IMG/VR virus record: IMGVR_UViG_2548876695_000014 | Length of the DNA: 4,733 nucleotides | Origin: a virus | Lineage: Duplodnaviria > Heunggongvirae > Uroviricota > Caudoviricetes | Direction: 5' to 3' (one strand) | In this document: piece after piece, positions 1,031 through 4,733 of the stretch | How positions within the stretch are numbered: the first letter of the stretch is position 1 | How the letters are laid out: every line of letters begins with the position of its first letter | The notes under the pieces: model-generated | Seen by the model: only the letters and a program-made list of their open reading frames with translations | Databases searched by the model: none | What the model was told of the DNA's origin: nothing | Position numbers and translations under genes: made by a program

Positions 1031-1054
1031 ATAAAAAACACGCTCGCGGCGTGT
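1031..1054 (-). terminator. tR'-like intrinsic terminator downstream of the Q-like gene
   Basis: On the minus-strand RNA: stem ACACGC / GCGUGU (plus 1038-1043 and 1049-1054), 5-nt loop, then a U tract (plus A-run 1033-1038). About 80 nt downstream of the predicted start site of the 1117-1146 promoter. Confidence 0.5.
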
Positions 1055-1076
1055 GTCTGTCGCGGTCTCTATCCGG

Positions 1077-1087
1077 GGTTCCTAATC
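1077..1087 (+). repeat. GGTTCCTAATC motif, copy 2
   Basis: Exact 11-mer, flanked by CCGGG and CCCG; lies inside the short leader between the late-type promoter and its terminator. Confidence 0.6.
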
Positions 1088-1116
1088 CCGACGCCAGATT
1101 TTGCTGGCGCGTGAGG

Positions 1117-1146
1117 AATATAGCCCCGGATAACAGATTGAGTCAA
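1117..1146 (-). promoter_or_regulatory. Strong sigma70-type promoter directly after the Q-like stop codon (pR'-like late promoter candidate)
   Basis: On the minus strand: -35 TTGACT (plus 1141-1146, overlapping the TGA stop), 18-nt spacer, -10 TATATT (plus 1117-1122); predicted start near plus 1110-1112. The first 20 nt of the transcript can form a CGCCAG/CUGGCG hairpin (plus 1092-1109). Confidence 0.5.
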
Positions 1147-2925: not shown

Positions 2926-2978
2926 CAAACGAAGGTCGGTTTAGTGGAGGAATCGGCTAAAACTTGATCTGTTAAAGT

Positions 2979-3004
2979 AAAAAACCCGCCGAAGCGGGTT
3001 TTTT
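2979..3004. terminator. Bidirectional intrinsic terminator ending the AT-rich operon
   Basis: GC stem CCCGC / GCGGG (2985-2989 and 2994-2998) with loop CGAA, flanked by a 6-A run (2979-2984) and a 6-T run (2999-3004), so it is followed by a U tract on either strand. It lies 6 nt past the stop of the 130-aa gene. Confidence 0.7.
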
Positions 3005-3009
3005 GTATA

Positions 3010-3646: not shown

Positions 3647-4516
3647 CTATACGATTCGACGTTCAGCTGCGGCGCGATGCCGTACAACCTGCGTGATAAT
3701 GTATGCTGGATTCCCCAATACACCATTAGTTTCTTTGACTCTTTTTGTCACATTCACTACAAAAAGATCATCTTTACTGAATGACGCTTCGTTTAAATTT
3801 ACTCGCTCAAGAAAACCAGCATCCGCCATCTTAACCTTTACATCCTCGCCGTCTGGCAATACCATCCTCCAATCTGTATCGGAAGTAAAGCTCAGCTTAG
3901 AAAACTTGACGTTTAAGGTCAATGAGTCTTCATGTGTATGTTGTACAACCGTATTATTCACTTTTTTAAAAGAAACAGATTGCTCTTGCGAAATAGAGAC
4001 AATCTCCTCCCCACTTGAGTTTTTTACTCTAAACGACGAGTTTTTTTCAGTTTGCAGAGGAGTGTGTACCAATTTACTCATTTCATTGCGGATCGTAGAG
4101 TTTGTAACGAGCTTTTGTACGTCATTTGAACACTCAAATCGCTCATTATCAACAACAAAAGTCGCTCGGTTATTGGCTTCATCTATAACAACCTCATGTG
4201 GCTTTCGCCCTCGCAACCATTCTACAACCCCAACCAAACTCCCAGCACTTGCGCCGGTGGCAACAGAAAGCCCCAAGAGTTGCAAAGTAGATAAACTACC
4301 CAAAACAGAGACAAGAACAGTAAAAGATCCTTCCTGAATTGCCTTAATACTAACCCTAGTTGTTGCAGTCTCACCGTGGATAATTTTCTCTGCATTATCA
4401 ATCAAATTACTTAATGAAGACAGAGCATCACCAAGCATTTTAGCATCGATCTCATTATTCGCATATGCATCCCCAGCATATGCAATCTCAAGCTCTGTTA
4501 CCTGTTGGTCGGTCAT
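3647..4516 (-). CDS. Hypothetical protein, about 289 aa, with an internal hydrophobic hairpin carrying a G-x3-G-x3-G motif; first gene of the AT-rich operon
   Basis: Long minus-strand ORF, stop TAG 3649..3647. Two in-frame ATGs: 4534 has no Shine-Dalgarno, 4516 has GGTGGAG 9 nt upstream, so I prefer 4516. Hydrophobic stretch encoded near 4220-4327 includes TGASAGSLVG. No Walker or other enzymatic motif seen. No family recognised. Confidence 0.7.
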   Translation of the reverse strand: MTDQQVTELEIAYAGDAYANNEIDAKMLGDALSSLSNLIDNAEKIIHGETATTRVSIKAIQEGSFTVLVSVLGSLSTLQLLGLSVATGASAGSLVGVVEWLRGRKPHEVVIDEANNRATFVVDNERFECSNDVQKLVTNSTIRNEMSKLVHTPLQTEKNSSFRVKNSSGEEIVSISQEQSVSFKKVNNTVVQHTHEDSLTLNVKFSKLSFTSDTDWRMVLPDGEDVKVKMADAGFLERVNLNEASFSKDDLFVVNVTKRVKETNGVLGNPAYIITQVVRHRAAAERRIV

Positions 4517-4635: not shown

Positions 4636-4733
4636 TTACTCCTCAGGTTCGTAGGCTACGAAGACAGCGACCTCCGTCTGGCCGGTTCGGATTCGTACCT
4701 CGCAGAGGTCTTTCCTCGTTACCAGTGCCGTCA
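4636..4733 (-). CDS. 3' end of a gene entering from the right edge (C-terminal 31 codons only); product unknown
   Basis: Minus-strand frame open to the window edge, ending TAA 4638..4636; hand translation ...TALVTRKDLCEVRIRTGQTEVAVFVAYEPEE. Composition is more protein-like than the other open frames here. Too short for the ORF track. Confidence 0.3.
   Translation of the reverse strand, partial: TALVTRKDLCEVRIRTGQTEVAVFVAYEPEE

Follow-up and report, generated by a model that had tools for sequence, protein, structure and literature searches.

In the Salmonella prophage Gifsy-1, the small RNA IsrK belongs to the locus antQ-isrK-orf45-anrP-isrJ, in which the promoter P(isrK) drives transcription of anrP (PMC4825925). 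Some of the transcripts pass the IsrK terminator. When IsrK is provided in trans, translation of anrP rises 140-fold, and AnrP increases transcription of the antQ operon and triggers prophage induction; at the position where Rfam places a C4 RNA, STnc1160 was found, which is a stable processed species (PMC4825925). We analysed a stretch of 4,733 nucleotides from a virus of the Caudoviricetes (IMG/VR record IMGVR_UViG_2548876695_000014, hereafter the window), in which positions 1146-1031 of the minus strand are the promoter and gene of IsrK, a known prophage small RNA. The genes of the window all lie on the minus strand, and coordinates are window positions on that strand unless noted. The initial annotation of this DNA had seen the element correctly and credited it to the wrong regulator, the antiterminator Q. 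We consider it probable that IsrK opens a mobile cassette of about 885 bp, carrying a C4-type RNA and an antirepressor gene, and that the cognate late unit of the adjacent Q gene, of the DUF1133 family, is located beyond it at 279-168. IsrK is an experimentally studied family, and its partnership with C4 and the insertion between Q and pR' refine known systems and do not establish a new kind of element.

Several described systems are comparable with this locus. In the immI region of phages P1 and P7 (a1/b1, c4, a2/b2, icd, ant1/2), a C4 RNA blocks expression of icd-ant (PMC8198154). The window shares with immI a two-site RNA that would be processed from the transcript of its own targets, as immI C4 is by RNase P, with one target pair upstream (a1/b1) and another at the ribosome-binding region, the alleles of which co-vary, as between P1 and P7. 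The P4 CI RNA with its seqA and seqC sites, a comparison made by the Gifsy-1 authors, is also a processed RNA that pairs up- and downstream on its own transcript; P4 CI, however, terminates transcription of replication genes, and no sequence or Rfam relation of the window to P4 CI was found. The lambdoid pR'-tR' units that produce lambda 6S and StxS resemble the IsrK unit in having a constitutive promoter by Q, a terminator about 70-190 nt further on and an RNA that is abundant in lysogens and possibly regulatory. Those units are specific to their Q and contain binding and pause elements, whereas the IsrK unit moves with the antirepressor cassette, with Q or without. Co-occurrence of isrK and c4 has been reported in APSE phages, without a functional link (PMC7313666). 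The literature searched holds no statement of IsrK as the a1/b1 partner of a C4 RNA, and none of a cassette insertion between Q and pR'.

The IsrK transcription unit

A predicted RNA of about 78 nt at 1110-1033 matches the Rfam family isrK (RF01394) over model positions 1-77, with 69.4 bits against a gathering threshold of 50. The start at 1110 was taken from the alignment to the Rfam model, the first position of which was assumed to be the mapped Salmonella 5' end. A terminated RNA of about 80 nt had been predicted here by the initial annotation, and the length now predicted agrees both with this and with the 77-nt Salmonella IsrK (PMC2330248). The promoter overlapping the Q-like stop codon, the 5' hairpin and the terminator that it had described were all recovered by a consensus scan and by folding, on the minus strand and exactly where it had placed them, and comparison with relatives of the element, given below, bears them out.

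P(isrK) is a predicted sigma-70 promoter (1146-1117) with the -35 hexamer TTGACT at 1146-1141, a spacer of 18 nt and the -10 hexamer TATATT at 1122-1117, which together have 10 of 12 consensus matches in a scan of the window. The stop codon TGA of the Q-like gene (1145-1143) lies inside the -35 hexamer. Within this single sequence the unit would not stand out, since promoter-like sites in the whole window are not enriched (5, against 6.4 +/- 2.5 in shuffled sequences) and the fold energy of 1110-1031 is unexceptional (z = -1.4) and uninformative taken alone; the support comes from comparison. Homologous cassettes were gathered from phage records, species-representative genomes and IMG/VR, giving 68 distinct variants. 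TTGACN, exactly 18 nt and TATATT or TATAGT are found at a fixed distance from the RNA start in 61 of these, with 24 different spacers, and the same promoter is displaced by 2 nt in five more. The homologous promoter of Gifsy-1 gave 280 Miller units with lacZ, compared with 3 (PMC4825925). Homology between cassettes in different genomic contexts starts at about -15 of P(isrK), and the spacer between -35 and -10 differs even among copies adjacent to DUF1133 genes (TCAATCTGTTAT, TCTGTTTGTTAT, AATAATCAGCAT). The spacer was also considered as a remnant of a Q-cognate unit or as a Q-binding element, on the resemblance of CTCAATCTGTTAT to TTCAATTCCTGTAT; this candidate was dropped, the spacer being unconserved among the DUF1133-adjacent copies.

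The RNA has a three-hairpin layout. Hairpin 1 (1110-1091; GCGCCAG CAAAAU CUGGCGU) appears in the minimum free energy (MFE) fold and is supported by covariation: among 46 sequences, compensatory changes altering both sides occur at three of its seven pairs, and 95% of alignment cells are paired, compared with 27-51% when the partners are slid. Hairpin 2 (1090-1074) was found by folding and carries in its loop (1086-1078) the site b1, AUUAGGAAC. It is followed by a single-stranded linker with the site a1, GAGACCG (1069-1063), which is complementary to the a' loop of the C4-type RNA described below. The intrinsic terminator (1054-1032) consists of the stem ACACGCCGCGAGCGTGT at 1054-1038 and a U run at 1037-1032, and lies 57-79 nt past the predicted RNA start. 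A terminator hairpin followed by T5-8 is retained among the cassette variants with at least six unrelated stem sequences; the terminator alignment is out of register between alleles, so that the pair counts refer to hairpins 1 and 2 and the terminators were folded singly. Relative to the predicted start, the RNA has its own sigma-70 promoter upstream and a Rho-independent terminator at its 3' end. The Rfam family c4-a1b1 (RF03163) overlaps IsrK at 1123-1070, passing marginally with 47.8 bits against 46.7; homologues score 47-53 bits.

The surroundings are of the Gifsy-1 type, with a DUF1133 Q gene at 1697-1143, a C4 RNA at 1007-923 and an ORF6N gene at 869-288. Both prophages have the order DUF1367, YbcO, DUF1133 Q, IsrK, C4-type RNA, ORF6N antirepressor and second terminator, and they share the length of IsrK, its three hairpins, a promoter abutting the Q stop and the paired positions of b1 and b'. 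The window differs from Gifsy-1 in belonging to a prophage of Shiga toxin-producing Escherichia coli (STEC) at a Rac-type site, in a b1 allele, AGGAAC, that is 1 nt longer, and in a small open reading frame (ORF) of 27 codons that does not overlap the antirepressor start. Its sequence recurs at 100% identity in a lambdoid prophage of E. coli 2000-3039, in which the order is hokD ... DUF1367, YbcO, DUF1133, ORF6N, TerB pseudogene, DUF3927, esterase, holin, lysozyme, Rz and terminase. Of 5,426 complete E. coli genomes, 612 contain similar sequence, which is unannotated in the examples listed.

The C4-type RNA and its covariation with IsrK and the antirepressor leader

The sequence at 1007-923 belongs to the C4 antisense RNA family (RF01695, 67 bits against a gathering threshold of 45) and corresponds to STnc1160, or 'orf45', of Gifsy-1. 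Its MFE is -42.9 kcal/mol (z = -4.5). Folding and covariation place its recognition sites in a loop, a' (966-959), and in a single-stranded segment, b' (953-945). The leader of the antirepressor gene (921-867) contains b2 at 921-912, a2 at 891-885, the Shine-Dalgarno sequence AGAGGG at 882-877 and the ATG at 869-867. Since a2 ends 2 nt upstream of the Shine-Dalgarno sequence, this target is at the ribosome-binding region, as in immI. The gene itself (869-288) encodes a protein of 193 aa with an ORF6N domain (Pfam, 4e-19; PHROG 2379 'anti-repressor', 3e-90), the counterpart of AnrP.

The sites vary together between cassettes. In 56 of the 59 variants readable at all three sites, b1 is identical to the reverse complement of b' and to b2; b2 was unreadable in nine further variants, all of which retain the identity of b1 with the reverse complement of b'. 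Eight b alleles were identified (GGCGT, AGCAC, GGAAC, AGGAAC, TGCAC, GAGAC, CGAAC and GACAG). The a' site is complementary to a1 and a2 over 6-10 nt; with a1, each variant has 6-9 complementary nt, and a minimum of 12 a alleles co-vary. Their positions are those seen in the window: a1 is the linker just 3' of hairpin 2, a' the loop of the second C4 hairpin, and a2 adjoins the Shine-Dalgarno sequence. Across the 68 variants, a'/b' are complementary to both a1/b1 and a2/b2 with co-varying alleles, which is the immI arrangement. In Gifsy-1, the compensatory pairs G28-C162 and G31-C159 were demonstrated experimentally and described as pairing of IsrK with 'orf45' (PMC4825925). By position they correspond to b1 and b', so the published genetics already support b1-b' pairing.

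These data, combined with the Gifsy-1 experiments, suggest how the cassette might work. P(isrK) would fire constitutively, most transcripts ending at the IsrK terminator as the RNA of about 78 nt and a minority reading through to yield the C4-type RNA and the antirepressor mRNA. The a' and b' sites of C4 would pair with a2 and b2 just upstream of the antirepressor Shine-Dalgarno sequence and keep translation off. Because the C4 sites are complementary to both the leader and IsrK, IsrK may compete for C4, both in cis, where its a1/b1 are part of the read-through transcript, and in trans, as the free RNA. An excess of IsrK would free the leader, the antirepressor would be made and the prophage repressor inactivated, and expression of the early operon, to which the Q gene belongs, would begin. 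We borrow four elements by analogy from Gifsy-1, namely an active promoter, partial read-through, the stimulation of antirepressor translation when IsrK acts in trans, and prophage induction; that C4 represses translation in this prophage, with IsrK as its decoy, we infer from the pairing sites.

In the terms of immI, the window has a C4 match (RF01695) and, upstream of it, an a1/b1 match (RF03163). The differences are an intrinsic terminator after a1/b1, which would make of it a separate small RNA, an antirepressor of the ORF6N type instead of Ant1/Ant2, and a lambdoid prophage as host element instead of the P1 plasmid prophage.

Some further observations concern these RNAs. The 27-codon ORF, the counterpart of 'orf45' (1003-920), is wholly within C4 and stops about 50 nt before the antirepressor AUG, and the AUGA overlap at 869-866 ends a frame that is open for only 10 codons. 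Some prophages have a pair of IsrK-C4 cassettes that differ in their a/b alleles, the first located in the nin region and the other after Q (L007, 290-476 and 3588-3768; L046, 3959-4147 and 7221-7406; L065). In some cassettes, a match to the sRNA-Xcc1 family (75-80 bits) lies about 140 nt downstream of C4 (L149, 8278-8361; L144, 823-906).

Insertion of the cassette and the unit downstream of it

The gene upstream of IsrK (1697-1143), outside the cassette, encodes a Q-like antiterminator of 184 aa, a homologue of AntQ. The initial annotation had called it Q by position, and the protein families agree: it matches Pfam DUF1133 (1.2e-106), PHROG 753 'anti-termination protein Q-like' and, as a weak pass, Phage_antitermQ (PF06530, 27.5 against 26 bits), and its best match in PDB is Q21 (E = 0.018). 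Its last nine or so codons differ from those of cassette-free relatives. Among the 68 variants, the gene upstream of the cassette is a DUF1133 Q in 18, a Q of PF06530 (Q933/Q21-type) in 11 and a Q of PF06323 (Q82-type) in two. NinE precedes it in about 18, including VT2-Sakai, and an integrase, a bPH_2 protein or unidentified sequence in the remaining ones, so that 37 variants have no adjacent Q gene. VT2-Sakai has its own Q, pR' and stx2 2.3 kb beyond the cassette. A four-way alignment contains the same promoter, RNAs and leader after Q (window, pPE4), after ninE (VT2-Sakai) and near an integrase (phi349).

Comparison with cassette-free relatives (phage vB_EcoS-666R9, S. flexneri and E. ruysiae) defined the limits of the cassette. 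The homology of L032, L008 and L009 with the window runs from 2626 to 1242 or 1174 and then jumps to 289, continuing to 215; that of L008 stops at 1174, and that of VT2-Sakai spans only 1146 to 496. From the break at 1242/1174 and the resumption at 289, about 1173-290 is identified as an insertion. In these alignments the cassette separates the DUF1133 Q gene from that gene's own conserved unit, and a remnant of 14 nt from the 3' end of Q (289-276), seen when filled and empty sites are compared, lies at its downstream edge. Where the cassette adjoins Q genes of the Q933/Q21 or Q82 type, the native last Q codons are likewise replaced in every case (IMG/VR loci L042, L067, L077, L086, L100, L106, L126 and L137; L038 and L055). 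A further insertion at this junction was seen in a Pantoea prophage (L015; 3699-3847, 4168), where hok/sok, in place of the antirepressor cassette, sits between the DUF1133 Q and the conserved unit. PP818812.1 (L004, 'Actinobacillus phage vB_Apl-pPE4') is 90-98% identical to the window over Q, IsrK, C4, the antirepressor and the downstream unit, and its host assignment looks doubtful.

The candidate DUF1133-Q late-control unit occupies 289-168 by comparison with cassette-free loci. It contains promoter-like hexamers, TTGCAT (279-274) and, after 17 nt, TTCAAT (256-251), followed 5 nt further on by TATGCT (245-240). A conserved 24-mer, GCTTCGCAAAGCTGTATCGCGAGG (242-219), has an exact match once in the window, with none expected by chance, and the unit ends in a terminator, CCACCGGAAGGTGG with T7 (188-168). 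Twenty loci of other species have this unit without the cassette: in 19 it comes directly after the stop codon of a DUF1133 Q, and in the remaining one a hok/sok insert precedes it. Its consensus is TTG[ACG]nn, 17 nt, TT[CGA]AAT, 5 nt, TAnGCT, a conserved stretch of 20-25 nt and an intrinsic terminator. As it follows the DUF1133 Q in about 20 species, the unit at 279-168 probably serves this uncharacterised Q family as its cognate pR'/tR', upstream of the lysis genes; the DUF1133 Q would act there, and late transcription would start there. The start may be read in two ways. With TTGCAT as -35 and, 17 nt on, TTCAAT as -10, TAnGCT would fall at about +1 to +6 and would possibly be a lambda-like sigma-dependent pause element. 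It is also possible that TAnGCT is itself the -10; a TGn extended -10 is present in many homologues of the unit. Positions T1, A2 and T6 of TAnGCT are invariant.

The same order is found with another Q family. At eight loci with a Q of the Q933 type, TTTACGATCGTAAAAAGTTGAATATCCTGTTAAGAGTGGTTAC...AACCCGCCGATGAGCGGGTTTTTTT comes after the stop codon of the antirepressor gene. It is a homologue of the VT2-Sakai segment comprising the 3' end of Q, pR', StxS and tR', a unit that is experimentally established (PMC7547250). In the Q933 context, the cognate late unit demonstrably lies downstream of the cassette.

The position of the downstream unit recalls IsrJ. Salmonella IsrJ is a 74-nt RNA that starts 837 nt past the IsrK start, and the long isrK transcript is about 910 nt (PMC2330248, PMC4825925). 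On the Gifsy-1-like contig L101, counting 837 nt from the IsrK start leads to a point 3 nt upstream of TATGCT, and +910 coincides with the end of the terminator stem, a spacing that fits the reading with TTCAAT as -10. The positions concerned are 3692-3765 (minus) of L101, 3941-4017 of L033 and 245-168 of the window. IsrJ may thus be the short pR'-tR' RNA of Gifsy-type prophages, an identity for which the published spacing (837 and 910 nt) is the sole ground. The Rfam isrJ model had no match on L007 or the window, and on L033 it matched the terminator part only (18.6 bits, E = 0.18). A scan of IMG/VR with the isrJ terminator pattern returned only unrelated loci, and an Rfam scan of 12 Q-adjacent loci at gathering threshold found isrI and no isrJ.

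Alternative explanations and implications

The initial annotation had taken P(isrK), the hairpin and the terminator as the pR'-qut-tR' of the adjacent Q, which would carry polymerase through terminators into the lysis genes, with IsrK as a by-product of the 6S or StxS type. A late cassette has been defined as Q, pR', a Q-binding element, a sigma-dependent pause element, tR' and late genes (bioRxiv 10.1101/651190). Some of this is present: the promoter adjoins Q, its -35 overlapping the Q stop as in the cognate units of this Q family, a terminator comes about 80 nt downstream, the RNA is short and terminated, and the holin, lysozyme and terminase genes follow on the same strand, about 3-4 kb downstream of the unit (the holin at about 3.8 kb). 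What directly follows, however, is a C4 RNA, an antirepressor and a second promoter-like/terminator unit, not late genes. The assignment to Q was not supported either, although the cassette adjoins Q genes in 31 of the 68 variants: the same promoter and RNA accompany three unrelated Q families, which could not all use one shared site, and are Q-less in 37 variants. In lambda, the Q-binding element lies in the spacer between -35 and -10, and here this spacer is unconserved even in DUF1133-adjacent copies. At +8 to +13, CAAAAT agrees with a -10-like pause element in its A2 and T6. This hairpin loop is likewise kept in cassette copies that lack a Q gene and in the c4-a1b1 consensus of Rfam, and phi349-type copies have GAGUUG in its place. 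The proposed qut function is not supported, the conserved b1 loop and a1 linker being accounted for by pairing with the downstream C4 RNA. A different sequence tracks the DUF1133 Q through 20 species and is kept intact at 279-168, and the experimentally defined pR'/tR' of the Q933 context comes after the cassette. IsrK has been called the product of 'an antitermination-regulated phage promoter' (PMC7547250), and AntQ overexpression lowers termination generally (PMC4825925); on the whole we find it improbable that this is the late unit of Q. No tRNA genes, as known from Stx phages, were found between Q and the next gene.

The Gifsy-1 model in its literal form, in which IsrK opens the 'orf45' ribosome-binding site on its own read-through mRNA and translation of orf45 is coupled to the antirepressor start, comes from direct genetics and probing in Salmonella (PMC4825925). 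It would make 1007-923 a coding or structured part of the mRNA and not a separate C4 regulator. Both orf45 AUGs are present in the window (1003-1001 and 991-989), as is AUGA at the antirepressor start. The ORF from 1003, however, already stops after 27 codons at UGA 922-920, about 50 nt before the antirepressor AUG, and no more than 10 codons are open in the frame leading to the AUGA overlap, so coupling of the Gifsy-1 kind cannot operate in the window. The Salmonella authors themselves report that the peptide sequence is unconserved (PMC4825925). The score of 1007-923 as C4 and its fold (67 bits, z = -4.5) also point away from this model, as does the covariation of a2/b2 near the Shine-Dalgarno sequence with a'/b', which coupling does not require. 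For this prophage we regard the literal model as unlikely. It is very unlikely that IsrK is chiefly a trans-regulator of host mRNAs, resembling StxS, with the antirepressor link as secondary. The Rfam label of the family is 'Hfq binding RNA', IsrK is expressed in lysogens under many conditions (PMC7067206) and StxS provides a precedent (PMC7547250); the effect of IsrK is nevertheless Hfq-independent (PMC4825925), no host target is known, and the only variable, co-varying parts of IsrK match the adjacent C4 RNA.

Several points weigh against a cassette in which C4 represses the antirepressor and IsrK acts as decoy. For the Gifsy-1 authors, IsrK acts by making the 'orf45' ribosome-binding site accessible and through translational coupling, and not by way of C4 repression, and constitutive STnc1160 strengthened IsrK toxicity, which misfits a simple picture of repressor and decoy (PMC4825925). 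The IsrK start at 1110 and its termination at 1032 are placed by homology. With RNAduplex, the pairing of C4 with the leader was not significant (148 of 500 shuffled sequences were as good), and that of C4 with IsrK was marginal (10 of 500); the program selects stem sequences, and covariation was therefore used instead. There is no icd-like gene, the sole ORF between C4 and the antirepressor being the 27-codon ORF inside C4. Given this and the ORF6N antirepressor, the locus would work in the manner of immI without being a P1 operon, and the P1 scheme is incomplete here. The promoter at 279-168 has no strong consensus match, and its start is placed by two alternative readings. Finally, the cassette stands directly after Q genes of three families in the 31 variants mentioned, an enrichment that could mean functional coupling, either to Q or to transcription arriving through Q.

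Elsewhere in the window, three consecutive ORFs at 4534-3010 (295, 79 and 130 aa) have no Pfam match and are followed at 2976-3005 by a strong bidirectional terminator, AAAAAACCCGCCGAAGCGGGTTTTTT, which explains weak Rfam matches there (istR, RsmY and Leu leader); together they look like an independent accessory unit. A 58-aa ORF without family match lies at 2819-2643, with a promoter-like TTGATA-16-TAGAAT upstream at 2925-2898, and in this region RefSeq annotates only a truncated pseudogene. The window ends inside prophage genes, with the 3' part of hokD at 4636-4733 and the start of a TerB-family pseudogene at 1-33 (L001 coordinates).

Returning to the mobile C4/antirepressor cassette, it is quite possible, although we would not yet lean towards it, that it is a self-contained, allele-specific switch of two RNAs, with IsrK decoying C4, which has repeatedly been set exactly between unrelated Q genes and their cognate pR', replacing the last Q codons. 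If so, IsrK of Gifsy-type prophages would not be a pR' by-product, contrary to its treatment in the literature; the true pR'-tR' RNA of the DUF1133 Q would be a transcript of about 74 nt after the antirepressor, probably Salmonella IsrJ; and positions +1 to +6 would be occupied by the invariant TAnGCT, acting as a sigma-dependent pause element like that of lambda. In annotating Gifsy-type prophages, and many of those in STEC, one should not assume that late control resides in whichever promoter-terminator pair comes first after Q. Q and pR' can be separated by a mobile antirepressor cassette, and this bears on predicting the promoter of lysis and toxin regions, on RNA-seq peaks near Q genes and on RecA-independent prophage induction via antirepressors. 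Work on Salmonella IsrK/STnc1160 and work on P1 C4/a1b1, so far pursued apart, are connected by this locus, which also supplies a candidate for the binding and pause site of the uncharacterised DUF1133 Q family.

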